64,000 bases of DNA, taken from Planctomycetota bacterium. Lineage in GTDB: Bacteria; Planctomycetota; Phycisphaerae; UBA1845. The DNA is taken from contig JAJRWX010000050.1 in NCBI GenBank assembly GCA_024276605.1, forward strand, positions 5,695 through 69,694, given 5' to 3'. The notes beneath the pieces were generated by a model. The model did no database searches, had not been told where the DNA came from, and worked only from the letters and a program-made list of their open reading frames with translations. The position numbers were made by a program, and so were the translations under genes. Of the stretch, positions 1,163 to 63,007 are shown in pieces (within the stretch, counting starts at the first letter, position 1; every line of letters starts with the position of its first letter).

Positions 1163-2737
1163 ATGCAAAGTATCCACAAAAAACATTTGGTCGGACTATC
1201 TTTTGTAACCTGTTATTTGCCAATTGTCGCACTAGCGTTGATTGTTGGCATGACTGCACGAGTAAATGCTCAACCTGCTTCACCGGTAGCGTTAACCGGT
1301 GAAGCAGGTTTTACTAAGGATCGGTACATCTCATTTGATCCAAGCACGAATGGAGCGTTGCTGGTCGGCTTTCGTGTCACACGTGTCGGTAACGCGGCGC
1401 CTTGGTATGTTAGTTGTTCTTTGCGCAATGACAGAGGCCCTGATGGTTATATATCCCGCTTGATTCCCATTCCCTAATACTGTGACTGGAGTGCTATCAC
1501 GGAACTCCACGTTCACGGCTGTCAAGTCGTGCCAGGTAATTTGTACGACATCGAGGCGACGGAGGATAATGTAGATTTTTCTCTTACCTTACGCGTATCT
1601 ACGACGTCGCCGACGCCCCTTCGGGAATTCGGTGATCTTGTAGGTGGTTACATTGCTGGTTTTTGGACAGCTCCAGATGGGATGGTAACTACCGACGATA
1701 GCATCGCCGTAACTAAAAAGTTAGCCCAATCACCCGATGCCCCACTGTTGGCACGTGTTGACATAGATGGACATGACGTGGACGAACGCGTTACTACGCA
1801 AGATGTCTACCGAGCAGTGGACGCTTTTAATGATGCTTCGTTTGGATTTGGTGTGACCGGATGCAGCACTGGTACATGTATCCCGGATTGCAGCCTGAAT
1901 GCCCCAGCCATGGTTTTCGATGAGGCTGGTTTTACCAAGGATAGTTATGTATCCATCGATCCCAATACCAACAGTACTGCAGCTGTGGCGATACGTGTCA
2001 CACGTGATGCTACTAATCTACCTTTGGTGGATAGGTATGTGGATTGCACCTCGTTGGAGGATAAAGGTGCGGATGGTTGGTATGCGTCGTTGATCGACGG
2101 TCCGTTGCCAGCCCCTGGTGATGCGACCTACTACTGCGATTGGAGTGGTGTAACCACCGGATTGCATATACGAGGTTGCAGTGTGGTTCCGGGGAACGAT
2201 TATCTAGTGGCTATGACTATCGATGGTGTCGAGTTTTCGTATGATGTAGTTATTCCGACAACACCAATACCATTACCACGTGAATTCGGTGATTTGGTGG
2301 GGGCATTTGTTGCCGATGCCTGGACGGCGCCGGATGGTCTTGTGACAACCAACGATATTGTGGCACCGTTGAGGAAGTTTGGGTTGGCCGCTAATGCAGC
2401 GATTTTGGCGCGAGTAGATACTGATGGTGCCGTCCCGAATGCTATCATAGCGTCGAGTGATATCCTTAGGGCGGTTCGTGCTTTCGCCGGTGACCCATTT
2501 GGCTACGATGTGACGGATTGCGTGCTGGGGCAATGTGTTCCTCCGCGGCCCGGTATCATGATATGCAGCAATGGCGGTAGATCCTGTGGGCATACTACTA
2601 TTGCTGCTGATTGCTGCCCAGGTGTGACCTGTGACCTTGTTCTGGGTGAATGCAGTAATAATGCCAATATGGCGTGTATGTCTGATGCTGATTGCTGTCC
2701 AGCATCATGTGACGCAGTTACGCAGTTTTGTGAGTAA
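1163..2737 (+). pseudogene. Secreted two-module repeat protein with a Cys-rich C-terminus, interrupted by an in-frame TAA at 1475-1477 (or a read-through gene)
   Basis: ORFs 1163-1477 and 1529-2737 share one frame. Sequence after the stop (YCDWSAITELHVHGCQVVPGNLY) aligns with module 2 (YYCDWSGVTTGLHIRGCSVVPGNDY). The TAA sits where module 2 has Tyr TAC. There is an N-terminal signal peptide, and dockerin-like FGDLVG...WTAPDG...D.DG segments occur twice. Confidence 0.6.
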
Positions 2738-2987: not shown

Positions 2988-3512
2988 TTACAACGAGGCC
3001 ATGTAAGCGACTAAATCGACAAGCTCCTGGTCTGAAAAATTAAATTTCCCACCTGGGTGGGGATCGCCACCTCGCAATACCGCGTCGGTTTCTTGTGTAG
3101 AATCTCCAATAATCGATGGCGCCTCGAGTGCGCAGCCGCCGGTCCCGTCAGCGCAGTGGCAGGCGCCGCAGTTGTTGGCCGTATAAATATCCTGCCCGGC
3201 TTGGACATCACCGACTAGGCTATCTAAATCGCCTCCGTCCCCGCCGTCACTATCAGGTGAACCACCGTCATTATCCGCATCATCGACATTGTCAACTTCG
3301 TCATCAACTTGGTTTTCGACTTCCCCACTGCCGGCTATTGCATTCGCAATGTCGGTCACAAAAGAATCAACCGCCGTTCGACCCGCCGCTGAAGCTAGCT
3401 GGAATAAAACTTCCTGGTAATTCGTTCCACATCCCACTAGAAATAGAAAACCAAACGGAAGGCATAACATCGTTTCGCGTATACGTTTTGAATTCGTAGA
3501 TAGGCTCTTCAT
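2988..3512 (-). CDS. Monohaem class-I c-type cytochrome lipoprotein with an acidic low-complexity linker
   Basis: Single CGACH haem motif and lipobox FLVGCG. The C-terminus (ELVDLVAYMASL) is typical of small cytochromes c. Start is uncertain: ATG at 3512, or TTG at 3542 overlapping the upstream stop. Confidence 0.7.
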   Translation of the reverse strand: MKSLSTNSKRIRETMLCLPFGFLFLVGCGTNYQEVLFQLASAAGRTAVDSFVTDIANAIAGSGEVENQVDDEVDNVDDADNDGGSPDSDGGDGGDLDSLVGDVQAGQDIYTANNCGACHCADGTGGCALEAPSIIGDSTQETDAVLRGGDPHPGGKFNFSDQELVDLVAYMASL

Positions 3513-3538
3513 CAACCATTTTCTCCACACATATGATG

Positions 3539-4111
3539 TCAATCGTCGCCGGATAAAAGTTTTCGCAGTAATACACCTTCACCAAAATGAGGATCGTGGC
3601 AGCGAGTACAGTTTTCCACTTGGTCGCCGCTATGTGCCTCTTCACTCAAATCTTCCGGCTCATCATGACATTCCACGCACGTTTCAAAGACGGTAAGTTT
3701 AAGTAGTGTGGGGTGAATGCTACGGTGCATCTCGTGGCATGTTACGCATTCGCCTGCGATAACCGGCGCATGGCCAACTTCCTTTGAAAAATACTTCGCG
3801 TGGCAATCTCGACAGGCCTCGAGCAAGGCGTCGTCTTCACGCGGCTTCATCTGATTTTCCTGAGAATGGCAGCGCAAACATTGATGCATGCGGAATGGCG
3901 GGTGGATGGATAGGTAATCACTGACCGCAACAGTCATACCGTGGGGGGGCATGGCGACAGGTATACCATCGATAGCACCGACCGGCTGTTGCTCGTCCGG
4001 GATTTCGAAGAACCAATGAGCCAGCTTATCGCGGGTATCGGTTGAACAACCCCACAAGACAAGCATGCCCACCGCACAGGTCCACGCAACCTTGCGCATA
4101 GCTGATTCCAC
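3539..4111 (-). CDS. Pentahaem c-type cytochrome lipoprotein (cytochrome c3/c7-like)
   Basis: Five CxxCH motifs (CLRCH, CRDCH, CVTCH, CVECH, CTRCH). Signal peptide with lipobox LWGCS. Confidence 0.8.
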
Positions 4112-4358
4112 CTTTTTCTTGTCGCAGTGCGTCTGCCACGCCTTGGCACCAGTCGCTACAGTACACTTTCGTCATCATAATACAAGAGTCTTCAGTCTCG
4201 GCATTCTCTGATCCGAGAAAAAATATTTACTGATCCATGTCCGACTCCTTCGCCGACGGTAAGAAAAATGCTTTTTTTTCTTGCGACCTTGGATGCAATC
4301 GTCTATAGAACTACCGGCTTAGCTAGGCAAAGACTGTGGAAGCAATGAGAGACGTGCG

Positions 4359-6413
4359 ATGAACGGCGCGACCATCACACGAGTACCACCCCTGTTACTT
4401 ATCGCAGTTTTCGCGTTAACAGGGTCTCCGGCAGATGCTTTAGCCGAGGAAGGCAAGACCAAGCCACAAGCAACCAGCGGTTTTCTTACGCTCGATTATG
4501 GCGATGTCTATCTCGAGCTGGAAACCGAATATGCCTATACCGACATTCGGTCCCGCAGCCAACGTTTTCCCTTCGACCGCAAGCAAACGAACCGTGAATG
4601 GCGTTTCGAGGAGCGATTCGGCTTAACGCTTGGCGGCACGGTGATTGACGCTAAATTTCTGACCTATCGCGCTGACGTTAATTTCGGCCTAGTTCAGGAT
4701 CGATTTAAGTAAAGCACGAATGTTGATCACCAATCGGAAATCGATCGAGGCTACCTGCTCGAATTTGATGCCCGAGTGAATATTTTGCCCGGCGGCATAT
4801 TTTCCGGGTCAGTCTACGGCCTACGCCGCGACGATCGTATCAATCGCCGTTTCCAAACCACCTTAACCGAGCGCCGTACGAGTTTTGGGACCAGTTGGGT
4901 CTTTGCACACGATACCATGCCTATGGAACTAACCTATGATTTTACCCGCACCAGCCGCCGTGGGAATCGTGATCGTCGAGATGATGAAGAGTTCACTGAT
5001 AACGCACTGCGCTATAACGTGGATTGGCGCATTAACGAGCATCAAATTCTAAAATTTTCCTATGAACACGTGGAAAGCGAGCAACGCTATCAAGGAACCA
5101 GCCTGCGCTTTGAGACCACGCGAGACTTGATGATTACGGATCACGAATTGGCCTTCGGTGAGCAGTATCAGCACGCGCTACGCACCCGATTTCGCTGGCA
5201 AGAGGAAAGCGGCGACTTCGCGCGAGATTTATTCGAGATAGGCCCGCAACTGACGCTGTCGCATTCCGATACGTTTCAAACGATCTATAAATACCAATTT
5301 AACCGAGAACGATACGCCGGGCTGGACGTCGAAACCCAGCGATTGGACTTCCAAGCCGTGCATCAACTGTATAGTAATTTAACGACGACTTTTGATGCCT
5401 TTGCGCTGTATGAAGATATAGAAAATGACATTAACACGACACAATATGGCGCTTCGGTCGACTGGCAATACAATCGCAAGAATCGTTTCGGTCGATTTCG
5501 CGCGAATCTAGCCCTTGCGTATGACACGGAAGAAGTGGAAAGTGATGAGGGGCAACGGTTGGTGCTCGACGAGTCAGGTACTTTTCGTGACCCCATCCCC
5601 ATCACGCTGCGAAACCGCAACGTTGATGCAAGCAGTGTGATTGTCACCGATACGGGCAATCGACGTGTTTTTTCAGCCGGCATTGACTACATCGTTTTTC
5701 GACAGGATAACGTCACGCGCATCTCGCGTATACGAACCGGCCTAATCGCCGACGGCGATACGGTCTTGGTTGATTATCTGTTCAACACCCCCGCACGTGG
5801 GCAACTTGATACGGTCCGTGTGGACTTCAGCTTGGAGCAAAGATTCACCAATGGGTTAACCCCGTATTACCGCCTATCCTATCGCAATCAGGAAGATGAT
5901 GTGACGACGGGCTTCGGGCGTAGAGCCGATCGTACCGATCACCATCGCTTGGGGGTGAAATACGAAAAACAGAAATATACCTTGGATGTGGAACTCGAAA
6001 TTTTTGACGATACCATCGAGCCTTATGACGCGTTTCATATCAACGGCCTGTATCATGTCCTGCAATCTACGGATCGCACCATAGACCTATCAAGTCTATT
6101 CTCCAGGTTGTTGTTTGAAGGCGGATTTGACAATCGCAACGTGACTTTGGTTGATGTGCAGCTTGATCACCAGCGTAGAATCAGCAACACCGTATCGCTT
6201 ATGCAGCGGCTCGTCTATCGCTATGAAAGAGATTCCAGCCGGGGCATCACCCACGCCTGGGATGTATCTGCCGGGTTGGACTTTGTCGTCGGTGAGTTGT
6301 CGGGCGAACTCGTATTAGAGTACGATCGCTTGGGCTTGCCCGAATCACAGGAAGACGACTACGGGGTATTTTTCAGAGTGCGAAGAGAGTTTCCTGATGC
6401 TTTGGTGCGCTAA
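4359..6413 (+). pseudogene. Putative outer-membrane beta-barrel (porin-like, ~684 codons) split by an in-frame TAA at 4710-4712 (or a read-through gene)
   Basis: ORFs 4359-4712 and 4776-6413 share one frame, with a 21-codon stop-free linker between them. There is a signal peptide (LTGSPADALA). The sequence is rich in alternating Y/R/D/F/T residues and has no hydrophobic helices. An aromatic-rich C-terminus (GVFFRVRREF) sits close to the end. Confidence 0.5.
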
Positions 6414-6420
6414 CCAATCT

Positions 6421-7443
6421 ATGGCTACGCGGCTTTTTTGGTGCCTTTTAGTTGGCACCATAGCCAGCGGTTGTGCGCGCCCTGAAGGCACCTTATTCCC
6501 CGCACTCCAATCACCCCGCGTTTGGCCCGCGCCACCCCAGCAGTCGCGCATCGCTTATATTGGAGCCATATCCGACAGCAACGATTTACATGCTTCACAG
6601 AGTGGATGGGAAATGTTCCAAGCCGGCCTGCGCGGACCGCTACCACCCATTCGCTTTTCCGGCCCGCACGCCTTGGCGATGGGGCCTGATGGCTGGCTTG
6701 CAGTAGCAGATACATCAGCCGCAGCCGTCCACCTAATTAATATTAACACGCGCGATCATCGTATCATCGCGGGATGGCATGATGAGCGATTCGCTTCGCC
6801 GGTTGGCGTAACCTGGGTCAACCATAGACTGTTTGTAACTGATGCCCAACGGCATGAAGTCATTGAAATGGACACGACCGGCACCGTACATCGTCATTTC
6901 GGTACCGAAGATTTGCAGCGCCCCGTCGGCATCACCTTCGCCCACGCCAATCAACGCTTATATGTGGTTGACGGCGATGCACACCGAATAGCTGTGTTTA
7001 ACATGGAAGGCAAGTTGGAAAAATTCGTCGGTCAGCGTGGCACGGCACCTGGGGAGTTTAATTACCCTTCACATATCACCTCAACGGCTGATAAGCTCCT
7101 CATAGCTGACAGCGGAAACTTCCGTGTGCAGTTAATCGATTTAGATGGAAACGGCCTGCGCGTGTTCGGACAAAAAGGCGACGGTGCGGGAGATTTTTCC
7201 CTGCCCAAGGGTGTAGCCGTAGATAGCGACGGGCATATCTATGTGGTCGATGCCCATTTTGAAAACGTACAGATATTTAACCAGCAGGGTCAATTGTTAC
7301 TTTCATGGGGACAGGAAGGTAGCGGTATTGGTGCATTTATCTTGCCAGCTGGGATCGCGATCGATAGCCTAGACCGTATATGGATCGCCGATGCAGGCAA
7401 CCGCCGTATACAGGTGTTTCAATATATGAAGGCAAAATCATGA
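6421..7443 (+). CDS. NHL-repeat six-blade beta-propeller lipoprotein
   Basis: Lipobox IASGCA. Six repeats of the NHL pattern, e.g. PKGVAVDSDGHIYVVDAHFENVQIFN and PAGIAIDSLDRIWIADAGNRRIQVFQ. The gene starts 7 nt after the barrel stop. Confidence 0.8.
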   Translation: MATRLFWCLLVGTIASGCARPEGTLFPALQSPRVWPAPPQQSRIAYIGAISDSNDLHASQSGWEMFQAGLRGPLPPIRFSGPHALAMGPDGWLAVADTSAAAVHLININTRDHRIIAGWHDERFASPVGVTWVNHRLFVTDAQRHEVIEMDTTGTVHRHFGTEDLQRPVGITFAHANQRLYVVDGDAHRIAVFNMEGKLEKFVGQRGTAPGEFNYPSHITSTADKLLIADSGNFRVQLIDLDGNGLRVFGQKGDGAGDFSLPKGVAVDSDGHIYVVDAHFENVQIFNQQGQLLLSWGQEGSGIGAFILPAGIAIDSLDRIWIADAGNRRIQVFQYMKAKS

Positions 7444-9236
7444 CACGACAGGTTTCAAAACTATGCGGCATGGTGATGCTCGGCTTATTGGCTACCCTAT
7501 CGCAGGCCGACGAGTCCGTTGTAAACTCCTTGCATGACTTATCCGTGCGCGGACCGGGACCAATTAGGGCTATCCACGAAAACGAAATTTGTATTTTCTG
7601 CCATACACCGCATAACGGTGCCCCGCAAACACCACTATGGAATCGTGAAAATCCACGAACGCATTACCGCATCTACCGCAGTTCGACAACCGACGCCCGT
7701 ATCGATCAGCCGTCCGGACCATCCAAGATGTGCCTTAGTTGCCATGACGGATCGATGGCCCTGGGCAATGTGCTCTCCCGGCCCCAAACACATCCCATCG
7801 TTATGACCGCCCGCACCATTCCTCCGGGGACAGCCGACCTGAGTAACGATCTGTCCGACGATCATCCGATTGGCTTTCGTTACGACCGCGCATTATCAAA
7901 TGCCGATCCACAGATTCGGGCACCGGAACTCATCAGCAGCAAGTTGCCGCTTGGCACGCACGATGAAATGCACTGCACGACGTGTCACGATCCACACAAC
8001 AATCAGCTCGGTGATTTTTTACGCATCTCGGATCAAATGTCTGTCATGTGCATCACCTGTCACGACCTTCAAGGCTGGCCCCACGCCTCACATGCTACCA
8101 GCGGAAAACGTACCTCCGGACGGACCGTAGATCCGGTCGAGCGACTAAAATACGCCACTGTTGCCGACAACGGCTGCATCAATTGCCACAAAATTCATTC
8201 CGCCAATGAGCGAGAGAGATTGCTTCGTTTTCGCCGCGAAGAGGATGGTTGTCTGAACTGCCATAGCGGTACGATTGCCAATTTCAACATAGCCTCCGAG
8301 ATTCGTAAACGTTCCAGCCATGATCCTACGAGACGCACAGGTGTGCATGACCCTACGGAAAATACGTTGACCATGCGCCGTCATAGCGAATGCACCGATT
8401 GCCACAATCCACACGCCGCAGCCCCCAACCCCATTGGCCTGGTGCGGGGCACGCTCGGACCGCTCGTCAAAGGGCCTAATCTGCGCGTATCCGGTATCTC
8501 CATCAGCGGGCGGGAAGTCGATCACATCAGTTATAGTTATGAGATGTGCCTGAAGTGTCACGCTGACGGCGTAGCCAGACCACGATTGGTCACGTCACGA
8601 CAAGTTAGCCAGACAAACACACGACTCGAATTCCAAACGTCCAATCCATCCTTCCATCCTATCGCCGGACCACGACGAAACGCTGACGTGGTGAGTTTGC
8701 TATCACCTCTACGCGTGGGTAGTGTCATCACTTGCATCGATTGTCATAATAGTGACACGGCAAGATCCTTTGGCGGGTCTGGACCTAACGGACCGCACGG
8801 ATCTATCTATGAACCGCTGTTGGTACGCAACTACAACACAGACGATTTTACATCCGAAAGTGCACAGGCATACGCACTCTGTTATGGCTGTCACAATCGA
8901 GATAGCATTCTTGGCGATGACAGCTTCTCCCGACACCGCCGTCACATCGTCGATATACGAACGCCGTGCAGCGCCTGCCACGATGCCCACGGTATTTACC
9001 GAGGCCAGGGCAACAGCGTCAATCACGGCAGCTTGATTAACTTTGATTTATCCATCGTGCAGCCGGCCGATTCGCCGGCAGGAAGACGCATCGCCTACGA
9101 AGACACCGGACGACTATCGGGAAACTGCACGCTGACTTGTCATGGTTTTACGCATGTGACCATGCCCTATTCCAACGCCGGGCCGAGGAAATCCGCTTTG
9201 AGACCCGGTAAATTGTCACGAGGAGGCAGGCGATGA
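7440..9236 (+). CDS. Multihaem c-type cytochrome, 11 CxxCH plus 1 CX3CH (doubled-CXXCH / Geobacter-type family)
   Basis: ATGA overlap with the NHL gene stop (7440-7443). Signal peptide MTRQVSKLCGMVMLGLLATLSQA. Motifs are CIFCH, CLSCH, CTTCH, CITCH, CINCH, CLNCH, CTDCH, CLKCH, CIDCH, CYGCH, CSACH and CTLTCH. Confidence 0.85.
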   Translation: MTRQVSKLCGMVMLGLLATLSQADESVVNSLHDLSVRGPGPIRAIHENEICIFCHTPHNGAPQTPLWNRENPRTHYRIYRSSTTDARIDQPSGPSKMCLSCHDGSMALGNVLSRPQTHPIVMTARTIPPGTADLSNDLSDDHPIGFRYDRALSNADPQIRAPELISSKLPLGTHDEMHCTTCHDPHNNQLGDFLRISDQMSVMCITCHDLQGWPHASHATSGKRTSGRTVDPVERLKYATVADNGCINCHKIHSANERERLLRFRREEDGCLNCHSGTIANFNIASEIRKRSSHDPTRRTGVHDPTENTLTMRRHSECTDCHNPHAAAPNPIGLVRGTLGPLVKGPNLRVSGISISGREVDHISYSYEMCLKCHADGVARPRLVTSRQVSQTNTRLEFQTSNPSFHPIAGPRRNADVVSLLSPLRVGSVITCIDCHNSDTARSFGGSGPNGPHGSIYEPLLVRNYNTDDFTSESAQAYALCYGCHNRDSILGDDSFSRHRRHIVDIRTPCSACHDAHGIYRGQGNSVNHGSLINFDLSIVQPADSPAGRRIAYEDTGRLSGNCTLTCHGFTHVTMPYSNAGPRKSALRPGKLSRGGRR

Positions 9237-9817
9237 TCGGCGCAAAATTTCTTCTGATTAGTGTAGCCGCTGTTTGCTGCGCGATCACAGGACTCGCTTC
9301 TTCCGGCATCGAAGGGTCCAAACATGATTTCAGCGGTCAAACCGGCTCGGATGTCGATAAGTGTACGGCTTGCCACATACCGAAAAAAGATGACGCCCCA
9401 AAGGCTGCCCCACTATGGAATCAAAGAGCAGACCTTAAGAGAAGATTCAACGGCCAAGACAAACGGGTCAGCAGACCGGGAGACGGCACACGCATCTGTC
9501 TGCAATGTCACGACGGTACGATTGCCAAACCCGTCGCAGGTGGCGTCAAAACGGAACGATTTGTATACACGAAACACCCACGATTATTCACCGCTGGACA
9601 TGGCCGAAGTGACCACCCCGTGGGTGTCCTCTATCCGACCTTTAGCGATGATTTTCACCCTATCGCCACGGTGTTGTCCAAAGGGACGGTCCTATTACCT
9701 CATGGCCGGGTCGAATGCACCTCCTGCCACGACCCGCATAACCAAACTGATGCCCCGTTCATGCTCGTCCGAAGCAACGCCCGCAGCGCGCTATGTCTCA
9801 CATGCCACAAGAAGTAG
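9233..9817 (+). CDS. Tetrahaem c-type cytochrome (doubled-CXXCH type)
   Basis: ATGA overlap with the upstream stop, and AGGAGG 7 nt upstream. Signal peptide present. Motifs CTACH, CLQCH, CTSCH, CLTCH. SKHDF...C..CH.P resembles the N-terminus of the 7440 gene product. Confidence 0.8.
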   Translation: MIGAKFLLISVAAVCCAITGLASSGIEGSKHDFSGQTGSDVDKCTACHIPKKDDAPKAAPLWNQRADLKRRFNGQDKRVSRPGDGTRICLQCHDGTIAKPVAGGVKTERFVYTKHPRLFTAGHGRSDHPVGVLYPTFSDDFHPIATVLSKGTVLLPHGRVECTSCHDPHNQTDAPFMLVRSNARSALCLTCHKK

Positions 9818-9908
9818 TCATGAATGCTGCGTACTTTGGTTCCGCGCATAGACGCTTACAGCATCCTTCTTTTTTGCGTATGGCTTTTTTGAAGCCATCT
9901 TCCGGGAA

Positions 9909-11015
9909 ATGATGAGTATTGACCGCTACACAATAAAAGAGCTTGCTCTAACACGGCGTATACTCGTTTTACTGTATGTGACAACGTACTGTATGTTTTC
10001 GATGTGTGGGGGCTGTATCACTCACTCCCCCAATAAGGAACTGGTGTACTTCCCCGCCCCGCCGGCGGAACCGCATGTAGTGCATTTGAAATCGTTTAAT
10101 CGTCTTCACGATTTAGTCTCACCAAAGCTATCCTGGGTTGATCATATTCGTGGTGGGTTTGCCAGCCCCTTTGTCGCCACACCAGCCGGTATCGCCTATC
10201 ACAATCCACTTCTATATATCTGTGATACAGGCCAAGGCTATGTGCATCGTTGGAATCTACTAACGGGGCAAGCAACCCGCATTGGTGATACCGGCAATGT
10301 CACACTAGGGACACCCGTCGCCGTAGCGGTGGACGATAACCAGGATGTCTATGTGGCGGATACCAGCCGAGGCGAGGTCGTCGTCTTTGATCAAACCGGC
10401 GACATGATACATCAACTCAAACCCAAACAAGGCGAATCGATGAAGCCCGTAGCACTAGCCGTCCAAGCGGGAAAAGTGTATGTAGCCGACATCGCCCAGC
10501 ATCGCATCCTCGTATTCTCAGCGGCATCAGGCTCGTTAATCACCAGTTTCGGTGGCCCAGGCCATGCGCTCGGCGCGTTCTATTTCCCCATGGGACTAGC
10601 CACCGACCAGCATGGCCGACTATGGGTAGCCGACTCGATGAATGGCCGTGTGCAACAATTCGATCATGCCTTCAAGCCATTATCCTCTATCGGTAGTCTG
10701 GGCAATCGCTACGGTGACATGGGCAGACCTCGACACCTTGATGTCGGTCCGGACGGTGTCATCTTCGTGGCTGATACTGAATTCGCACACGTACACATGT
10801 TCGATCAAGATGGCCGATTGCTCATGCTCTTAGGAGGCCCCGAAGATCAACCTGCCGGCACACCCATGCCATTAGGCATTGCTATAGCCCGGGATGTACC
10901 TCCTCTCATTCGTGAACTGGCTCCCGCAACATTTGATCCAAAATATTACCTCTTCATCTCAAACACCGTGGGTTCACAACGCCTGAGCATCTTTGCCGTC
11001 GGAGTGAAGAAATAG
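9909..11015 (+). CDS. NHL-repeat six-blade beta-propeller (probable lipoprotein)
   Basis: Six NHL-like blades, e.g. PVAVAVDDNQDVYVADTSRGEVVVFD and FYFPMGLATDQHGRLWVADSMNGRVQQFD. The N-terminus is hydrophobic with FSMCGGC. Confidence 0.8.
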   Translation: MMSIDRYTIKELALTRRILVLLYVTTYCMFSMCGGCITHSPNKELVYFPAPPAEPHVVHLKSFNRLHDLVSPKLSWVDHIRGGFASPFVATPAGIAYHNPLLYICDTGQGYVHRWNLLTGQATRIGDTGNVTLGTPVAVAVDDNQDVYVADTSRGEVVVFDQTGDMIHQLKPKQGESMKPVALAVQAGKVYVADIAQHRILVFSAASGSLITSFGGPGHALGAFYFPMGLATDQHGRLWVADSMNGRVQQFDHAFKPLSSIGSLGNRYGDMGRPRHLDVGPDGVIFVADTEFAHVHMFDQDGRLLMLLGGPEDQPAGTPMPLGIAIARDVPPLIRELAPATFDPKYYLFISNTVGSQRLSIFAVGVKK

Positions 11016-11460
11016 AAAGAATTGAATGCTTGGTAGAGCGACAGTGTATTCACATTATCTCAATAATGGGAAATAGGCGTATTAGGCATGTCATAGATAT
11101 GTCCTTTTTGGGGGTACACAATTTCAAATCCTTTTCTCACCTTTGAGTCGGTTCAAGTCGTAACAGCTATTGTTACGATACTCCTACGTGGCAACGGCTA
11201 ATATTTTTTGTTAATCTACTACATCATCCAGATAATCACAAAGCTATACGGATGATAAAAAGCAATATAATGTGATTATGCAATGGCCTGCGGCACTTAT
11301 TGCATTTTCGCATATTGCATTGCGGCGTATTCACGAAGAATGTAATTACCATGCGAGTCTCATCGCACATGGGCAATAGCTATTCAATCGTAGATGATCT
11401 CAAGACAGTAACCTACCAGGATGATGAGTTACCTCAAAGGTTTATAGGAGGCTGAAAACC

Positions 11461-12807
11461 ATGAACAAAAAATTGAAATGTATTTCATCCGTTGGCCTAT
11501 TTGCAGTGGTTGTTACGATGTCCAGCGTTTTCATGGTACTTATCGTTGGCTGCCCTACAGTCAGCGTGGGCGGAGGCACAACCAACGGTAATAGCGGTGT
11601 CACAGGCAAATTCGTCGGCGCCGAAACATGCCTAGCCTGTCACGCAGATGATCACGCGAATTGGTCCAACACAGGGCATGCCGGCGCATTAGAAACCCTG
11701 GAAGCTATCGGCCAAGGCGAGAATGCTAGTTGCTTGGGCTGTCATACAGTAGGCTTTGGTGAAGATGGCGGCTTCGTAGACCGTGCGACCACCAACGCCC
11801 TTGTTGGGGTACAATGCGAAAACTGTCACGGCAGCGGTCGCGACCATGTAGATAATGCCATCGCAGCACGTGATGAAGGGGCAACCTTTGACGAAAGCCT
11901 GAAGCCGGTGGTTAATCTGTCTGCGCAAATGTGTGGCACCTGTCATACCGATGCCCATCATCCAACCTTCGACGAGTGGAAACTATCCAAACATTCGACG
12001 GCCCTTGAAGGTCTTCGATCCAATCCGTTTGCCAACGACAGTTGCCTGGAATGTCACTCCCAGGACTTCCGTTACCAAACAGAACTGGCCACCGAAACGG
12101 GTGATCTGAGTAACATCCCGACGTTAGATTCCGCCCTGTTTTCTATCGAATGTGTCTCTTGCCATGCCCCGCATGGCGGCGTGGCACAGAACCATCAGTT
12201 ACGTATGCCCGTGGCTGATTTGTGCGGCGAATGTCATACGCAAGAAGAGGCAACGCTAGGTAGTACGCCTCATCATCCGCAAATTGAGATGGTAACTGGT
12301 ACTGGAGGCTTCGCAGCCGACGGAACAAGCTTGGTTCAAGCCGGTCCGCATTCGAGCTTGTTTGCCAGTGATGGCGAGGCTTGCGCACAATGTCATGTGG
12401 TTACGCACGATGTGGACGAACCCAATGATGGAAATCCCAATATCACAGGACACACATTCAACCCCTTCGATGAAGATATCACGACAATATCCCCTGAGCA
12501 TCAGGCTGAACAGTTCGGTGGGTGTCTGATTTGTCACACGGCTGAAGGTGCTCAGGAACGTTTTGATCGAGTACAAACGGACATTGCAGCCAAACTCGAT
12601 GCACTAAGCCCATTCTTTGATGCAGATAACCCGTCCTTTATTGATAAGAACACACTTACAATCGAGGATCAACTGCGTTACGAGACTGCCCAGTTCAACT
12701 TTAAGTATGTCGAGGCGGATGGTAGTCAAGGCGTGCATAATGCTTCATATGCCCGGGCTTTGTTAGATATTGCAGAGACTATTTTGAATGACTTAGCCGC
12801 AACATAA
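11461..12807 (+). CDS. Nonahaem c-type cytochrome lipoprotein
   Basis: AGGAGG sits 9 nt upstream of the start. Lipobox LIVGCP. Nine CxxCH motifs (CLACH, CLGCH, CENCH, CGTCH, CLECH, CVSCH, CGECH, CAQCH, CLICH). Confidence 0.85.
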   Translation: MNKKLKCISSVGLFAVVVTMSSVFMVLIVGCPTVSVGGGTTNGNSGVTGKFVGAETCLACHADDHANWSNTGHAGALETLEAIGQGENASCLGCHTVGFGEDGGFVDRATTNALVGVQCENCHGSGRDHVDNAIAARDEGATFDESLKPVVNLSAQMCGTCHTDAHHPTFDEWKLSKHSTALEGLRSNPFANDSCLECHSQDFRYQTELATETGDLSNIPTLDSALFSIECVSCHAPHGGVAQNHQLRMPVADLCGECHTQEEATLGSTPHHPQIEMVTGTGGFAADGTSLVQAGPHSSLFASDGEACAQCHVVTHDVDEPNDGNPNITGHTFNPFDEDITTISPEHQAEQFGGCLICHTAEGAQERFDRVQTDIAAKLDALSPFFDADNPSFIDKNTLTIEDQLRYETAQFNFKYVEADGSQGVHNASYARALLDIAETILNDLAAT

Positions 12808-13127
12808 CCAAATGCCGGTCAAGCGAATACACGCATCGGTCTGATCGGTCTGGTAGCTTGAAATGACTACCGGTATGACCATTTTATTCCCTTGACTCTA
12901 GCAAAAAAAATGTACGCTCGCGCAAGAGTTGCGCGTTAACTGTGTAGCCTGTGATTGTTAGTCAATTTTTTATATTCTGGCATGGATCATGCGAGGCAGT
13001 TGTTATTGTTGAGAAATGTGAGGGTTGACCGACTTTGTAACAATAGAAACTACTTGCCCCCTGTCATAACGCTAGGCGGGGGTTGTTGGAATTACAGTAG
13101 TAGAACAACGCATGAGGAGATCAGATT

Positions 13128-14756
13128 ATGCTCAGAAAACAAACCCCGAGTTGGAAGCCGCTCATGGCCGTTGGTGTGACGGTCTCGTTATTTAGTTTGT
13201 CACTTTTGATGGTAGGTTGTCCAGGGGGCACGATCCCTCCACCTGGCAACCCCTGTGACAATGTGGACTGCCAGGATGGTCAAACCTGTATCGACGGCAC
13301 ATGCGTAGCTGATGATACGGGCAATGCCCCAACCTTACAGGGGTTAGATGCGAACAAGGCCATGATCCTACCGTTTGCGGTACAAGTCGCATACAACGAT
13401 GACACTATGTTTTTTCACATGAGCTGGGAAGGCGACCGCGGGGATACGCACGATTATTTCCGATACACCAACGGCGCTTGGCAGCGTGAAGGCGGTGTCC
13501 GACGAGATGCCCAAGCAACGATCGATAACGATCCTCTGCGTGGTTCTACCAGTATAAACTCGACAATTTACGAATCCCGCGTCACATTTATGTTGGACGA
13601 CCCCACCGGTCCTAATGCCGTCGCAGGCTTCGCCCAGTATGGCTGCATGTTAACTTGCCATGACAATAGCCGAGCTATGCCACAATGGATTCATGACGAC
13701 GGTGAGGTTCATAAGTATCTACCGGATGATAAGCCCGGTCGCTTAGACCTATGGCACCACCGCCTGGGCCGGGCTAACCCCATTGGCCTATCTGACGATC
13801 AGTGGGTAGGTCTACGACAAGGTAAGGGTGATGATGGCGTCACCGACGAAGATGGCGGTTCCCGCCAGGGCGATGCAGGCACCGGACCATACGCCACGGG
13901 AAAGACCGATGGCGATGGCAATCCGCAGTGGGTATTCGACCCCAGTACGACCGGTGGCCTTTATGCCTTTGCCTTTGGGGACTTATTTACCAGCCCGATT
14001 CGTTATTTTGCGGATGACACCGCACTCAATATAGGCCCGAATGCACCGAACCCCATCGGTATCGATTACGCCGAAGCGATAGCCATGGGCTATGTGCCAA
14101 GTGAAGGCGATACCGTGCCTCGTCGTCGACTTCGACAAACAGAAGGTAGCCGGGGAGACATCACAGCAGCCGGTACGACTTTCACACCATCAGCCAACGA
14201 TCCGCTCTTTGGCCGATGGAATTCGAATATTCAGCGTGCCATGGATACTGGCAATGATGATGACACTGCATTGGTTGACGGTAACATTTACAACATCGCT
14301 TTCGCTGTCCATGTAGGCATGGTTACCGTGCGGGATCATTATGTATCCTTCGCCTACACCCTTTCGCTAGGCGGCGGTGATGCCGACATTCAAGCTGTGA
14401 AGATTTCAGGTAGTGGCAGCGCTACGCTTCCAGACTTCTCAGATACCGCGCAGTTCCCGGTAACTAACTTGAATACCTTCTTGCCAGGCATTACCAGCTA
14501 TGAATTTCTCAATGGTGATAACGCCGGGTTGGAATACATTGATCCTGCTACGGGCACAGCCGTTGACCAGAATCACGCAGGCGCTACCGGTTTAATGACG
14601 GGAGGCTTACGTTGCCAATCGTGCCATGCCGTTAGCGATGCTGACGTAGCATCCTTTACTGCATCGGGTACTGGTGCGTTCCCCGCTGGATCTATGGAAT
14701 CGCTGGCACCACAACGCGGCGGGGTGACCTCGCCAACGCCGCTTCCCCCGCCATAG
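13128..14756 (+). CDS. Lipoprotein with a small 4-Cys module, an EB_dh/DOMON-like putative haem-binding domain and one C-terminal CxxCH
   Basis: Lipobox LMVGCP, then PCDNVDCQDGQTCIDGTCV. MFFHMSWEGD and LDLWHHRLGRANPIGLSDDQW resemble ethylbenzene-dehydrogenase-type haem domains; this rests on my memory of the family and is not verified. Also CMLTCH (CX3CH) and CQSCH. Confidence 0.5.
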   Translation: MLRKQTPSWKPLMAVGVTVSLFSLSLLMVGCPGGTIPPPGNPCDNVDCQDGQTCIDGTCVADDTGNAPTLQGLDANKAMILPFAVQVAYNDDTMFFHMSWEGDRGDTHDYFRYTNGAWQREGGVRRDAQATIDNDPLRGSTSINSTIYESRVTFMLDDPTGPNAVAGFAQYGCMLTCHDNSRAMPQWIHDDGEVHKYLPDDKPGRLDLWHHRLGRANPIGLSDDQWVGLRQGKGDDGVTDEDGGSRQGDAGTGPYATGKTDGDGNPQWVFDPSTTGGLYAFAFGDLFTSPIRYFADDTALNIGPNAPNPIGIDYAEAIAMGYVPSEGDTVPRRRLRQTEGSRGDITAAGTTFTPSANDPLFGRWNSNIQRAMDTGNDDDTALVDGNIYNIAFAVHVGMVTVRDHYVSFAYTLSLGGGDADIQAVKISGSGSATLPDFSDTAQFPVTNLNTFLPGITSYEFLNGDNAGLEYIDPATGTAVDQNHAGATGLMTGGLRCQSCHAVSDADVASFTASGTGAFPAGSMESLAPQRGGVTSPTPLPPP

Positions 14757-14823
14757 TTTTTCGCATAACAGCCTGTTTCATATAACGATATGATCGTGGC
14801 TGTGACATTTTGCATTCATCATT

Positions 14824-14860
14824 GACCCCGGCTCAGTAACCGTGCCGGGGTCTTTTTATT
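14824..14860 (+). terminator. Rho-independent terminator
   Basis: GACCCCGGC (14824-14832) pairs with GCCGGGGTC (14844-14852) and is followed by TTTTTATT. Confidence 0.7.
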
Positions 14861-15319
14861 GCATATCCAGGCGCTAATCATCAACCCTGTACGCATTGTT
14901 TAGTAAATCGACTTGCTACCGCTCAACGGCATCGGCATCCGAACGTAAGTATCTACCAATACGCTACTTACGTCATTACCAATCCTGGGCATACTTAGCC
15001 ACAAGCTCGGCCCGTATCCCGCTCAATCGATCATAGCCCACACGCTCCGCTCGAACAGGGTGAGCAACAATCCATGTGGTACCGCAAGCTAAGGCCGAAC
15101 AAATAAAATTAACTTGGAGACGAGGCGTAATTGTTACGACTCCGCCTACTTTCTCTTGACTAATATGATTTTTTCTCAATTATGGAATGACTTGCATGAG
15201 ACAGGTTGGCAATTACTAACTTTGAGAACCTATAGATCACAGGATTAAAAATGCCCTGGCGCGGGGCGTTGGTGTAGCACCTATTTCGATTCTAGTAAAA
15301 AGTATTAGGAGATCAGTCA

Positions 15320-16291
15320 ATGTTAAGAAAACGGATGATAAGTTGGCAACCGCTCATAGCCATCGGGGTAACAATGTTTATCGTAGGATGTCCTACCATC
15401 ACGACACCGCCGGACGATCCATGTGCCGGTGTGGACTGCACGGACGGCGAAACTTGCGTTGACGGTGTATGTGTCGCAGCACCAGTCGATACTACCGACC
15501 CTGTAGAGTTCACCAATGCAGACGGTATCAAAGGAGGCGCGCTGTACGACAAGTTTTACGACACACCGGATTTTGATAAAAATACTGATGACGCTGCGCA
15601 GATTATGGCATTTGGTGATTTCTTCCGCTGCAAACAGTGTCATGCTTGGGATCACCTCGGCAACATGGCCTCCTATATAGACCGTGCGCCAAAAACCACG
15701 CGGCCTAATGTGACTGCGATCAACCTGGCTGAACATGCCATGGACGAGTCTGCACAAGAATTGTTCGACGCCATAAAAACGGGAAATGGCGGACGACGAT
15801 CTGTGTCCGCTGATTTGTCCACTTACGATCCCGCTGATCCAACAACAACAGCTGTGGGCGATCAGATGCCCAATTTCGGCGAAATTCTCACGGACGCCCA
15901 GATATGGGATCTCGTCAAATATCTCAAAGAGGACTTTTTAGATACAACCCAGCTGTACGACATCGACATCACAGGAACGTATCCGGATGGAACACGGACA
16001 TTTTCAAATATCGGTAAAGACGGCGATCCGGTAAATGGGGATGCCCTATACGCAGCAAAATGTGCTGGATGTCACGGTGCAGACGGCCTTCTGATTCTCT
16101 TTGACAACGGTGAATTATCCATTGGCTCTTTCGCCCGTACTAAACCATATGAACTCTCTCACAAATCCAAGTTTGGTCAGCCCGGTTCAGCAATGGGGCC
16201 ACAAGGCATTAATACAATCGAGGATATGAAAGACCTATTCGCTGCGCTAGTTGATTCAACGAACTTTCCTGATCCCGCACCGGCCCCATAG
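15320..16291 (+). CDS. Dihaem c-type cytochrome lipoprotein with the same N-terminal leader and 4-Cys module as the 13128 gene product
   Basis: Lipobox FIVGCP, then PCAGVDCTDGETCVDGVCV. Motifs CKQCH and CAGCH. Confidence 0.75.
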   Translation: MLRKRMISWQPLIAIGVTMFIVGCPTITTPPDDPCAGVDCTDGETCVDGVCVAAPVDTTDPVEFTNADGIKGGALYDKFYDTPDFDKNTDDAAQIMAFGDFFRCKQCHAWDHLGNMASYIDRAPKTTRPNVTAINLAEHAMDESAQELFDAIKTGNGGRRSVSADLSTYDPADPTTTAVGDQMPNFGEILTDAQIWDLVKYLKEDFLDTTQLYDIDITGTYPDGTRTFSNIGKDGDPVNGDALYAAKCAGCHGADGLLILFDNGELSIGSFARTKPYELSHKSKFGQPGSAMGPQGINTIEDMKDLFAALVDSTNFPDPAPAP

Positions 16292-16318
16292 GCCTGTCCT
16301 TAATCTTTAGTCATTTTG

Positions 16319-16353
16319 AAACCCGCGATCACTCGACGATCGCGGGTTTTTTA
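16319..16353 (+). terminator. Rho-independent terminator
   Basis: AAACCCGCGATC (16319-16330) pairs with GATCGCGGGTTT (16338-16349), extended by a T-run. Confidence 0.7.
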
Positions 16354-16704
16354 ACGCGCATTGACTGGCGTGGATGCTGTATTCATATTGCGCATGGTTA
16401 TACCTGTAGCGTACTGGATCCCCAGCCTGTTTGATGGAATTGCCGAAGTCGCAACGTGAAGGCATAAACATGCCAACGACGCTCCTTCCACACTCATCGC
16501 ATTTGACAAAAGCGTACAACACGCGGTAACACAAATGTAGCTCATGCCTCGATAGCGTTCACCAACCGCAGTGCAGCCGCATCTGGGCTTTTCTTCACGT
16601 ACTGACATCACGGACTTCTCAATACCGGCGGTTGGTGTTTCGTGAATTTGCTGATCGAAATTCACCGTTCGGCACGGAAATTGCGTGTAAATTACCGTAG
16701 AGCT

Positions 16705-16800
16705 AGCTCTATTAAACTGTAGTGTCCGGTAGCAGATTTTGGGGGAGGTTATCGATGTTTGACCGCTACACGCTATAGGAATGCTAGTGATGGTTTCATG
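16705..16800 (+). promoter_or_regulatory. Conserved leader-like element, copy 1, with GGAGG plus mini-ORF MFDRYTL (16755-16778)
   Basis: A 30-nt block (25 identical positions) and a 28-nt block (24 identical) are shared with 21149-21251. GGAGG lies 6 nt before the ATG. The element sits 40-130 nt upstream of the membrane cytochrome gene. Confidence 0.35.
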
Positions 16801-16841
16801 ATGTCATGCGTCTTCTGCCTATAAAGTTGGAATAATTGAAA

Positions 16842-37152: not shown

Positions 37153-37319
37153 CGTTTGCCCGCGCTCCATTATACGATCTTCGAACGTATCTAACTCTAC
37201 TGAACCTAACAGCAGCATACACCACTTCCCCCCAAAACACGAGACATCGCTAATGCCTCGTCGTGCATCATGGGACCGATCTTACGATCCGCAACCATCT
37301 GGGACTGACAAATCCGGGT

Positions 37320-37770
37320 AGGGCAGATCGTTCTTTCGCTAATGCAATAAGCATTTGCGAAAGGTTGACCTGCCTGAAATCATCAAGCTTCGGACTTCTG
37401 CACCATCAAGCGCACGTCGGCATGAGGTTTAGGTTAGACGTAGGTCAGCGCCGGGTGGCCCATCTCCTTTGGAGGTGGGAGAGACGATGATTGCGGGTTA
37501 CATCACATCATGCACAGGGTGCCCCATCCATTGGGTACTCCCAAAGGGTGGGGGACGGATCATGTGTCGAAAGGTACCACAAGTGTCACTGTCATTGCAC
37601 GGACTATCCTTCCCCCACCCTTTGCCAGTAGGCAAAAGATGGGGCACCCGCTTGTCCGCAGGCTGGCGCCGTGCGGCTCTGATTTGACATTCCACCGGTT
37701 GCAAGTATCTATGGCTACAGGCAGGTCAACCTTTCGCCAATTTTGGATTGGCGAAAGAACGACCCGCCCT
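37320..37770. repeat. Mosaic of hairpin repeats: family 3 inverted (37320-37374), family 4 (about 37457-37490), family 1 (37519-37651), family 3 (37655-37770)
   Basis: Each block has near-identical counterparts at 19166-19445, 28378-28711 and 38356-38960. Family 3 forms GGCAGGTCAACCTTTCGC...GCGAAAGAACGACCYGCC. Confidence 0.7.
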
Positions 37771-37797
37771 AAAGTTATCCCACATCACGAGTGTTGA

Positions 37798-38310
37798 TTA
37801 ACGCAACAGCACCATCGCGACGACTTTGTATCCCCATCCCGCCAGCACGAGCGCTACGCACACCAACCCCAATTGAAATGGCGACACACGAAACCAGTTG
37901 ATCCGCCACATCCGCCCGGTCAGCGCCGCCGTCATCGCAACGACGCCCACCACAAACACCATCAAAGCCGCAAGTAACCCGGTTGGCTGAGCATAAAACG
38001 CTAGGATCACCTCACCCCGCACCGCATGAGAAAAAGCCGTCGTCATCCCACAGGTCGGACAAGGATACCCCGTCATCATGACCAAACTACACGGGGCTAA
38101 GCCAAGCTGACGATGCGTCCCCAATCCGCGTGCATCCGGACTCAAAGTCCACGCGACGGCAAGCAGACCAAAGCAGATTAGCCCCAAAACCAACGCCCAT
38201 AATCGGGTATATGACGTAGCTTTATGCTCAAGACGCATCATCACCGGCCCAAGCGGATGCCCACGCGTGGCTTGATGTTCGCTAGAGGTTGACTGATCCA
38301 TGTGTGGCAT
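37798..38310 (-). CDS. DUF2752-like membrane protein
   Basis: GYPCPTCGMTTAF motif with four hydrophobic helices. Confidence 0.6.
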   Translation of the reverse strand: MPHMDQSTSSEHQATRGHPLGPVMMRLEHKATSYTRLWALVLGLICFGLLAVAWTLSPDARGLGTHRQLGLAPCSLVMMTGYPCPTCGMTTAFSHAVRGEVILAFYAQPTGLLAALMVFVVGVVAMTAALTGRMWRINWFRVSPFQLGLVCVALVLAGWGYKVVAMVLLR

Positions 38311-38355
38311 GAGTTGACCAATACATTATGCAACGTTCACGGTAATGCCGCATGG

Positions 38356-46662: not shown

Positions 46663-46743
46663 CGTGACATACTTTCAGAGCAATTATCCGCTGCCCAATC
46701 TTCCGTCACAGCATTCGAAGAAGGCATCCAAGTACTTGAGGGT

Positions 46744-62900: not shown

Positions 62901-63007
62901 CTACGGTTGTCATCGGAGGTTTGGTGACATCGACCGCACTGACCTTATTGGTCATCCCGGCATTGTATAAGTGGTTCGCACCTGCCGAAAAAGAAGTAGT
63001 GATCTGA
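59904..63007 (+). pseudogene. CzcA/CusA-family heavy-metal efflux RND pump with a -1 frameshift near 60171-60175
   Basis: The N-terminal 90 aa (59904 frame) end ...VRSVSNFGL. The remainder continues in another frame as VVNVYFEDGMDIYF. Restoring one T in CTTCC (to CTTTCC) gives GLSVVNVYFEDG, the family-typical sequence. Confidence 0.85.

Follow-up and report, generated by a model that had tools for sequence, protein, structure and literature searches.

An in-frame TAA at positions 4710 to 4712 raises the question of whether the large porin-like gene that contains it is broken, split by design, decoded through its stop or simply misread. The gene lies on the plus strand of a 64-kb stretch of DNA (the window) from an uncultured member of the Phycisphaerae, in one frame that runs from the ATG at 4359 to a TAA at 6411-6413, which falls at the C-terminus of the orthologues. 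The original prediction took the ORFs 4359-4712 (117 aa) and 4776-6413 (545 aa, GTG start) for parts of one gene split by the TAA, and it noted that the next 63 nt hold no further stop. We verified this frame; indeed, 566 of the 566 codons 3′ of the premature TAA are open. The N-terminal fragment (4359-4709, plus strand; 117 codons) begins like a signal peptide (MNGATITRVPPLLLIAVFALTGSPADALA) and, from its translation and an orthologue model, includes strands 1 to 3 of a barrel. The remaining 566 codons (4713-6413, plus strand) have no signal peptide of their own, so that the predicted restriction of such a peptide to the first ORF holds; translation and orthologue model assign to them strands 4 to ~28 and an inserted domain. 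Residues around the stop read DRFK-X-STNVDHQSEIDR, where X is codon 118. The first in-frame starts beyond it are the GTG at 4776, 63 nt after the TAA, and a TTG at 4785, both without a Shine-Dalgarno (SD)-like motif. The second ORF was thus correctly described as having a GTG start without an SD, but the argument built on that absence is weak: across the window, SD-like motifs precede only 17 of 37 genes, and the true start of this gene, at 4359, is itself without one. The 117-aa piece is recorded as a separate gene call (P0121), as is the 545-aa piece on the same NCBI contig; therefore, the stop is present in the deposited assembly.

Related genes give the ancestral state of this codon. We checked 120 proteins and 62 loci, all from Phycisphaerae/Planctomycetota MAGs, and these genes are uninterrupted at ~685 aa. 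An alignment of orthologues had been proposed as the way to find the lost sense codon, with orthologues that break at this point as the observation that would speak against a single gene; all of them are single proteins. A stop at codon 118 occurs in 0 of the 120 proteins and 0 of the 62 loci, and the window copy is the only one among the loci compared to carry a stop in the barrel gene at all. One locus, L060, is seemingly half a gene, its other half being a masked run of N. The column at codon 118 holds Glu in 118 of the 120 homologues and Gln in one. Since the nearest relatives read GAG (L001), GAG (L003) and GAA (L002) at this site, TAA is one G-to-T step, at position 4710, from GAA. The whole gene (4359-6413, plus strand; 684 codons and the terminal TAA) matches P0001/L001, L002 and L003 over 684 residues without a gap; its identity to P0001 across residues 1-684 is 80%, and no indels separate it from its orthologues. 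Homology continues in the same frame on either side of the stop, the 566 downstream codons matching the C-terminal 566 residues of the family, and this continuity is far beyond chance. No second intact copy of the barrel gene was present in the 64-kb window. The exact junction pattern, with the first codon base left free, gave 0 matches in genome and metagenome contig collections.

Selection on the two parts has not been relaxed. The dN/dS value against L001 and L002 is 0.05 downstream of the stop and 0.12 to 0.14 in the N-terminal part, in each case equal to that of the intact pair L001-L002. Besides the stop, there is one deviation in 158 columns conserved at ≥95%. Both halves being under strong purifying selection like the intact orthologues, the lesion must be either very recent or not real. 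An old, decaying pseudogene was rejected, as dN/dS is not raised, conserved columns are kept and indels are missing. Furthermore, the remaining genes of the operon show no decay. This counts against a real loss, because decay would be expected had the conduit been long lost.

The description of the product as a barrel-like porin was borne out by structural modelling. An AlphaFold2 model of the 80%-identical orthologue (pLDDT 86.6) is an outer-membrane barrel of ~28 long strands with an extra inserted domain at about residues 399-476. Foldseek matches in the PDB were all large outer-membrane barrels, the top TM-score being that of MtrB (6r2q_B, 0.45/0.47); a Pfam and NCBIfam search of the barrel protein matched no family. 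The first strands in the model span residues 43-65, 74-95 and 101-120, which puts residue 118 at the end of the third. As the stop follows strand 3, no barrel can form from the product as written.

The neighborhood is a cytochrome cluster, in keeping with the original prediction, with NHL β-propellers and multihaem cytochromes flanking the barrel gene. An NHL-repeat six-bladed β-propeller with a lipobox-like N-terminus (ASGC) is encoded at 6397-7443 (plus strand; Pfam NHL, 2.9e-30); this gene overlaps the 3′ end of the barrel gene and is syntenic in L001 and L002. It is followed on the plus strand by a 598-aa multihaem cytochrome (7440-9236) with 11 CXXCH motifs, one CX3-4CH and doubled-CXXCH domains, equal in length in L001 and L002 at 87-90% identity, then by a 194-aa tetrahaem cytochrome (9233-9817; 4 CXXCH, Paired_CXXCH_1) and a second NHL-repeat β-propeller protein (9909-11015; Pfam NHL, 1.5e-21). 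On the minus strand, 3539-4111 encodes a divergently transcribed 190-aa pentahaem cytochrome (5 CXXCH, Paired_CXXCH_1) that is syntenic with the barrel gene in the same two relatives. Thus, proteins with 11, 4 and 5 CXXCH motifs adjoin the barrel gene, in a gene order that is the same in L001 and L002. The locus has two features of a porin-cytochrome conduit of the Mtr/Pcc/Uet kind, namely a barrel of at least 26 strands with a signal peptide and co-located, conserved multihaem cytochromes with export signals. Our model-based reading is that the barrel is the predicted outer-membrane channel of a conserved barrel/NHL-propeller/undecahaem/tetrahaem cluster of Phycisphaerae. An Rfam scan of the whole window returned nothing at the gathering threshold.

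The TAA at 4710-4712 marks an ordinary broken gene or a sequence error; recoding and a split by design are both very unlikely. Between these two, we lean slightly towards a real mutation. A G-to-T change at 4710 would have turned the GAA of Glu-118 into TAA, so that translation would end after the signal peptide and three strands and no barrel would form; any product re-initiated at the GTG at 4776, having no signal peptide, would stay in the cytoplasm. With a truncated N-terminal piece and a cytoplasmic C-terminal piece, the copy would be a null allele, and the barrel gene has probably lost its function. In other words, it may well be, on a judgment that we place close to evenly balanced, that this copy is a real and very recent null allele in the population that was sampled, and that the genome has several such fresh lesions in its envelope genes, this one among them.

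Three such lesions accompany it, so that the window holds four in all: the in-frame TAAs at 4710, 1475 and 46660 and a 1-nt frameshift at about 60171-60175, all of them in the deposited contig. The second TAA (1475-1477, plus strand) lies in a gene for a secreted two-repeat protein (1163-2737). The internal repeat of this protein can be aligned through the stop (E=7e-62), and its homologues have Y or E at the site. The third (46660-46662, plus strand) interrupts a 622-codon gene (45577-47445). Homologues of this gene are ~616-622 aa long and cover the 361-aa ORF with only their first ~356 residues; the stop column reads E in 31 of 54, D in 8 and Q in 5, and beyond the stop the sequence shares 68% identity with P0163. 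The frameshift (60171-60175, plus strand) is a 1-nt deletion, CTT/CC where CTTTCC is expected, in the gene of an RND (AcrB/CzcA-type) pump (59904-63007); its N-terminal piece covers positions 2-84 of the ACR_tran profile and a 943-aa ORF in another frame covers positions 89-1020. Each of the four is a single defect in an envelope-related gene that is conserved on both sides of it. Since two further TAAs and a frameshift share the window, the stop at 4710 is not special to the barrel gene. Purifying selection otherwise acts on all three genes with a TAA, whose products are exported or belong to the envelope.

Other same-frame ORF pairs, at 24419 (TGA), 38711 (TGA), 50546/50876 (TAG) and 9849 (TAG) and several on the minus strand, were dismissed as lesions because they run antisense to, or out of frame with, Pfam-verified genes or have a junk translation. 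A codon-usage scan of all stops, which scored the coding potential of both flanks, placed 46660 and 4710 among its top ranks; as a lesion counter, however, it discriminates too weakly, antisense frames of real genes scoring high as well. Four fresh lesions in about 42 genes exceed what is expected at a pseudogene rate of 3% (P=0.037), an excess that could equally mean a problem of assembly quality.

That second meaning is the strongest competitor. The organism would have GAA at 4710-4712, and the four lesions would be artefacts of a MAG contig of low quality or low coverage; we regard this as quite possible, though somewhat less likely than a real mutation. Four single defects, each in a gene conserved on both flanks, form the pattern that errors leave, and their density is high for a free-living bacterium. 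The deletion sits in a short T-run, a classic site of sequencing error. In the barrel gene, a stop is absent from all 62 related loci, and the contig offers no independent copy: those of its recorded proteins that were tested each form a singleton cluster, from one deposit. The required error profile, however, is hard to match. For random substitution to produce three nonsense codons, ~86 substitution errors would be needed in 50 kb (95% range 18-252), which corresponds to about Q28 (Q23-Q35). The consensus of short reads is much better than this, and a long-read consensus as poor as this would be dominated by indels, of which the window shows only the single frameshift. Besides, many long ORFs are intact, two of them of 1464 and 943 aa, with complete, full-length Pfam matches, and very low coverage is disfavored by the 70.8-kb length of the contig. 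As ~86 implied substitutions with a single indel fit the consensus of no common platform, a real mutation is slightly favored, and the base at 4710 may well be correct. A change from GAA or CAA to TAA follows the usual GC-to-AT direction of bacterial mutation.

The agreement of the three premature stops also invites readings that reach beyond this gene. Rather than separate accidents or errors, they might reflect a genome-wide property of the lineage, either a G:C-to-T:A hypermutator (e.g., through MutY or MutM deficiency) or a suppressor tRNA that acts on TAA at a low level, which we consider very improbable. If it were true, a hypermutator would account for a burst of new null alleles among the genes of surface structures, and a suppressor would make TAA alleles tolerable. 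A stronger form, in which TAA is decoded by programmed read-through, a suppressor tRNA or partial reassignment to give the full-length barrel, draws on the occurrence in 64 kb of three genes with one in-frame stop each, all TAA, at sites where homologues mostly have Glu (or Gln or Tyr); under uniform substitution, three TAAs out of three have a probability of 0.053. Of the explanations originally listed, inactivation, read-through and base-call error, the first and last hold as alternatives, while recoding, read-through included, is very unlikely. As a normal terminator, TAA closes 14 of the window's 38 long ORFs, the barrel gene at its own conserved end included, and the premature stop is conserved in none of the 120 homologues or 62 loci. 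The +4 bases differ at the three sites (A, T and C), and each gene has a single stop where recoded genomes have many. We found no tRNA genes in the 64-kb window, no significant RNA structure downstream of the three TAAs (z of -1.6, -0.9 and -0.6) and no sequence motif common to the three sites. A sense reassignment of TAA is not known from bacteria. Hardly credible, finally, is a functional two-piece barrel, assembled from a 117-aa and a 545-aa product of separate translation: both parts are open and conserved and a GTG is available 63 nt past the stop, but none of the orthologues compared is split, the exported piece holds only three of ~28 strands, the second part could not reach the outer membrane as it has no signal peptide, and the recency of the lesion accounts for the conservation of both parts.

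A real and recent null allele or a consensus error, the lesion is of a known kind, and neither outcome alters what is known of stop codons or porins. The practical consequences lie in annotation. Gene callers yield two 'hypothetical proteins' of 117 and 545 aa, both already in public protein collections. Presence/absence surveys would miss the outer-membrane component, or would count a conduit that the genome as written cannot build. The cluster of barrel, NHL propellers and undecahaem cytochrome is itself widespread, with 60 distinct loci among Phycisphaerae MAGs. Should the stop be real, the population is a natural knockout of the cluster's outer-membrane channel, which would suggest that bacteria in that habitat can do without the conduit. 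Should the stop be an error, the four lesions flag the quality of the contig.

In gene content, one of the closest known counterparts of this locus is the undecahaem electron transfer (Uet) cluster, which occurs in Ca. Tenderia electrophaga and in some Gallionella (10.1101/2022.05.06.490989; PMC9900912). The UetC barrel is predicted to have 28 strands, against ~28 here. UetJ, a cytochrome with 11 CXXCH motifs of the 'doubled CXXCH' type, resembles the 598-aa protein; the tetrahaem UetA resembles the 194-aa protein with 4 CXXCH; and the NHL-repeat propellers UetH/I resemble the two NHL genes of the window. The likeness is one of gene content and of the numbers of haems and strands. In contrast, the peptidyl-prolyl isomerase (PPIase) UetB, the trihaem c7 proteins UetDEG and the cupredoxin UetF were not seen adjoining the window barrel; Pfam and NCBIfam found no PPIase, cupredoxin or dedicated small trihaem c7 protein among the ORFs of 2988-19160. 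The gene order is also different, and the host phylum here is Planctomycetota. A scan with family-specific peptides reached Planctomycetota loci only, and we found no literature link between Uet and this phylum.

The MtrAB/MtrCAB system of Shewanella (PDB 6R2Q) likewise has a large outer-membrane barrel encoded beside multihaem cytochromes. However, MtrB has 26 strands, whereas the window family has ~28 and an inserted domain, sequence identity is 8%, and neither Pfam nor NCBIfam matches the window barrel to an MtrB family. Furthermore, the window locus has no adjacent MtrA-type decahaem cytochrome but has NHL propellers.

In FeGenie-type surveys, the outer-membrane cytochrome clusters of Desulfovibrio ferrophilus IS5 go by the name 'DFE'. 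According to a passage in 10.1101/2022.05.06.490989, which cites work on this strain, its multihaem cytochromes occur with NHL-repeat β-propellers that are thought to stabilize the complex. The window cluster pairs the same two kinds of protein and is likened to the DFE clusters by this description; 'DFE variants' in Phycisphaerae have been reported by surveys (10.1101/2022.03.26.485925). The lesion itself resembles an ordinary nonsense pseudogene, or null allele, or a base error of a MAG, with its change from sense to stop by a single base, in-frame homology on both sides and intact orthologues. From an ordinary nonsense lesion it does not differ in kind; what is unusual is the local density of such lesions in 64 kb.

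The reading frame of the porin-like gene runs on the forward strand from an ATG at 4359 to a closing TAA at 6411-6413, and its translation meets an in-frame TAA at 4710-4712, where the window reads ...CAG GAT CGA TTT AAG TAA AGC ACG AAT GTT GAT.... The mechanical ORF list accordingly holds an N-terminal ORF of 117 aa (4359-4712, ATG start) and a C-terminal ORF of 545 aa (4776-6413, GTG start), both on the plus strand and in one frame, as the original prediction of a single split frame had it. The same reading had noted 63 stop-free nt after the TAA; in fact, the whole remainder of 566 codons is open.

A homologue search with the read-through translation returned 185 relatives, the best 120 of which were examined. 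Nearly all of these are 660 to 750 aa long and cover 94 to 100% of the query; the sole short entry (P0003) is the window's own 545-aa ORF, from a single NCBI contig of 70,776 bp. In a MAFFT alignment of the same best 120 of 185, the stop column is occupied by Glu in 118, Gln in 1, and a gap in P0003, so that the orthologue comparison proposed earlier identifies the sense residue as Glu. The nearest relatives align gap-free (DNA identity 76-77%, protein identity 80-81%), and the codon at the stop position is GAG in L001 (a JGI metagenome contig), GAA in L002 (GCA_024280855.1), and GAG in L003 (Phycisphaerae MAG OFTM182). The TAA is therefore a single G->T step from GAA. Furthermore, tblastn with the orthologue against 62 related loci, drawn from species-representative genomes and metagenome contigs, showed the barrel match to be continuous and stop-free in every locus but the window; an apparent half-gene in L060 proved to be a masked run of N breaking that locus. 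Orthologues consistently encoding two proteins that break at this point were the pattern set against a disrupted gene at the outset; none split at the stop site was seen among the best 120 of 185 proteins or the 62 loci. As a side observation, the public gene call for the L002 orthologue (P0002, 659 aa; 8001-9980 of L002, from JAJRPG010000098.1, GCA_024280855.1) begins 25 codons too late; lengthened to the ATG at L002 7926, the protein reaches 684 aa and regains the conserved signal peptide.

Leaving the stop aside, the window protein deviates at 1 of the 158 columns with conservation of 95% or more (family median, 2), and the gene has no indels relative to the orthologues in L001, L002, and L003. 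Upstream of the stop, signal peptide included, dN/dS of the window against L001/L002 was 0.12-0.14, compared with 0.16 between L001 and L002; the corresponding downstream values were 0.05 and 0.059. These values are comparable to those of the adjoining genes. Thus, neither dN/dS, conserved columns, nor indels against orthologues give any sign of relaxed selection, and the stop must therefore be evolutionarily very young or unreal.

In the AlphaFold2 model of P0001, the orthologue encoded in L001, strand 3 (residues 101-120) has residue 118 at its end. The exported truncated product would thus comprise the signal peptide and three strands, unable to close a barrel. The earliest in-frame starts past the TAA are GTG 4776 and TTG 4785, and a product begun at either lacks a signal peptide and could not get to the outer membrane; the signal peptide is indeed confined to the first ORF. 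The lack of a Shine-Dalgarno sequence before the second ORF, also raised in the original prediction, is a weak argument because such a motif precedes just 17 of 37 window genes and is missing from the true start at 4359. Since no second barrel copy was found in the 64-kb window either, we infer that the copy is null as written.

A scan of the window for same-frame open segments parted by one stop calls for caution, as no fewer than four genes of the contig are disrupted. The gene at 1163-2737 (TAA at 1475-1477) encodes a secreted protein with two repeats of ~200 aa and a Cys-rich tail. Its repeats align through the TAA (E = 7e-62), and homologues have Tyr or Glu at the site, immediately ahead of a conserved [YF]C[DEN]W motif. 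Many proteases and further exported enzymes of Planctomycetota have the same repeat module at their C-terminus (the matches carry Pfam domains such as PF05572, PF04389, PF05547, and PF14312). The gene at 45577-47445 (TAA at 46660-46662; 622 codons on read-through) encodes a protein that is rich in helices, starts with a membrane anchor or signal, and has no Pfam or NCBIfam match. In a full-library HMMER search, its 361-aa upstream ORF retrieved about 130 relatives (E<1e-10), almost all of 600-660 aa and aligned solely over their first ~356 residues. Its homologues are unbroken at ~620 aa, with Glu in 31 of 54 at the stop column, Asp in 8, and Gln in 5, among them the closest homologue, P0163, to which the portion past the stop is 68% identical. 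Lastly, the RND (AcrB/CzcA-type) efflux pump gene at 59904-63007, downstream of an HlyD-type adaptor (58635-59879), is frameshifted at ~60171-60175 by the loss of 1 nt from a short T-run: its N-terminal 89 residues (59904-60170) match ACR_tran profile positions 2-84, the 943-aa ORF in another frame (60176-63007) matches positions 89-1020, and the junction reads TTC GGT CTT CC|G TGG where CTT TCC GTG is expected, one T being absent. The fragments of all disrupted genes are separate gene calls on one NCBI contig; therefore, the lesions are in the deposit and did not arise in preparing the window. The remaining same-frame ORF pairs were discarded as antisense or off-frame to Pfam-verified genes, or as junk translation.

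Separately, the non-coding sequence around a small DUF2752 gene (37300-38900) holds many repeated palindromic elements that look REP- or MITE-like, with no Rfam match: a 127-nt unit, itself a hairpin (37517-37643 and 38354-38480, 83% identical), a 29-34-nt unit (GGCGAAAGAACGACCYGCCCTA) that occurs at least five times and in both orientations, and a 40-nt unit in two copies (93%).

The original three-way interpretation (inactivation, read-through, or base error) was sound, and we lean slightly toward real, recent null alleles, to which we give marginally better than an even chance. A consensus or assembly error behind the TAA stops and the deletion is a serious contender that falls somewhat short of even. 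With about 42 genes, four fresh single lesions are more than a pseudogene rate of 3% would give (P = 0.037; at 5%, P = 0.16), and one of the four is a T-run deletion; both points favour an assembly-quality problem. However, nonsense changes make up only 3.5% of random substitutions, and three nonsense codons would therefore take about 86 erroneous substitutions in 50 kb (95% range 18-252, Q23-Q35), whereas short-read consensus is much better. Long-read consensus at Q23-Q35 is dominated by indels, yet a single frameshift was found; long ORFs (1464 and 943 aa) are intact, Pfam matches of AdoHcyase, SdhA, and TrkA/H are full-length, and orthologue alignments are gap-free. A search for the exact 24-base junction that allowed any base at the first codon position had no match in species-representative genomes or JGI metagenomes, and even the window's AdoHcy hydrolase clusters with no other protein at 90% identity.

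Decoding of the TAA by read-through or recoding appears very improbable. All three window stops are TAA and fall at mostly-Glu columns, but the 38 long-ORF terminators comprise 14 TAA, 14 TGA, and 10 TAG, the barrel gene's own final TAA falls exactly at the orthologues' end, and none of the relatives carries a stop at any of the three sites. Moreover, the 64-kb window has no tRNA, the 90 nt following each TAA are no more strongly folded than shuffled sequence (z = -1.6, -0.9, and -0.6), and the three contexts share no motif (+4 bases A, T, and C). GAA is the commonest single source of TAA by substitution at the window's codon usage; under uniform substitution, TAA takes 37.6% of nonsense changes (three of three, P = 0.053). 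Bacterial mutation is usually GC->AT biased, which would push that share higher. Novelty in gene organisation or in decoding is rejected, the orthologues examined being unsplit and TAA a normal terminator. The barrel gene is a normal single gene that bears an ordinary single-base nonsense change or a base error.

The barrel protein matches no Pfam or NCBIfam model. AlphaFold2 was run on an alignment of 52 sequences with P0001 at its head, a protein equal in length to that of the window and 80% identical to it without gaps. The model (mean pLDDT 86.6) has about 28 long antiparallel strands, a small domain inserted in the barrel near residues 399-476, and, at the N-terminus, a helix of low confidence such as signal peptides typically give. 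A Foldseek search of the PDB yielded solely large outer-membrane barrels (TonB-dependent receptors, LptD, FimD usher, and MtrB), among which MtrB of the Shewanella Mtr complex (6r2q_B) had the top TM-score (0.45/0.47) at 8% identity. The barrel gene is followed by a lipoprotein-like six-bladed NHL propeller (6397-7443), a 598-aa cytochrome with 11 CXXCH motifs (7440-9236), a 194-aa tetrahaem cytochrome (9233-9817), and a second NHL propeller (9909-11015); divergent pentahaem (3539-4111) and monohaem (2988-3542) cytochromes lie on the minus strand. Farther downstream are a 9-haem lipoprotein, an EB_dh-domain protein, a dihaem, and a NapC/NirT-like 9-haem protein. L001 and L002 retain the core order (pentahaem, then barrel, NHL, undecahaem, tetrahaem, and NHL); given the fold and these neighbours, "putative porin" of a cytochrome cluster was therefore a fair label. 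The EB_dh (ethylbenzene-dehydrogenase-like haem-binding) domain protein is a lipoprotein (13128-14756), the 9-haem lipoprotein (11461-12807) has MtrC-like domain II/IV matches, and L002 has a Rieske/cytochrome b pair upstream; together, these genes around the barrel suggest a full electron route from periplasm to surface.

Surveys have so far treated multihaem proteins in Phycisphaerae/Planctomycetota only as unnamed clusters or "DFE variants" (10.1101/2022.03.26.485925), and we found no literature connecting Uet with Planctomycetota. The Uet cluster of Ca. Tenderia electrophaga comprises the 28-strand barrel UetC, undecahaem UetJ, tetrahaem UetA, and NHL proteins UetH/I (10.1101/2022.05.06.490989; PMC9900912). 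Likened by gene content, it is the closest known system, as the window cluster too has a ~28-strand barrel, an undecahaem and a tetrahaem cytochrome, and two NHL proteins. The barrel family is part of a conserved Uet-like cluster (barrel, NHL propeller, 11-haem, 4-haem, and NHL) present at 60 distinct Phycisphaerae/Planctomycetota MAG loci. In contrast to Uet, the window cluster (2988-19160) lacks the PPIase, the trihaem c7 proteins, and the cupredoxin; the likeness probably bears on how the window cluster works rather than on membership in Uet.
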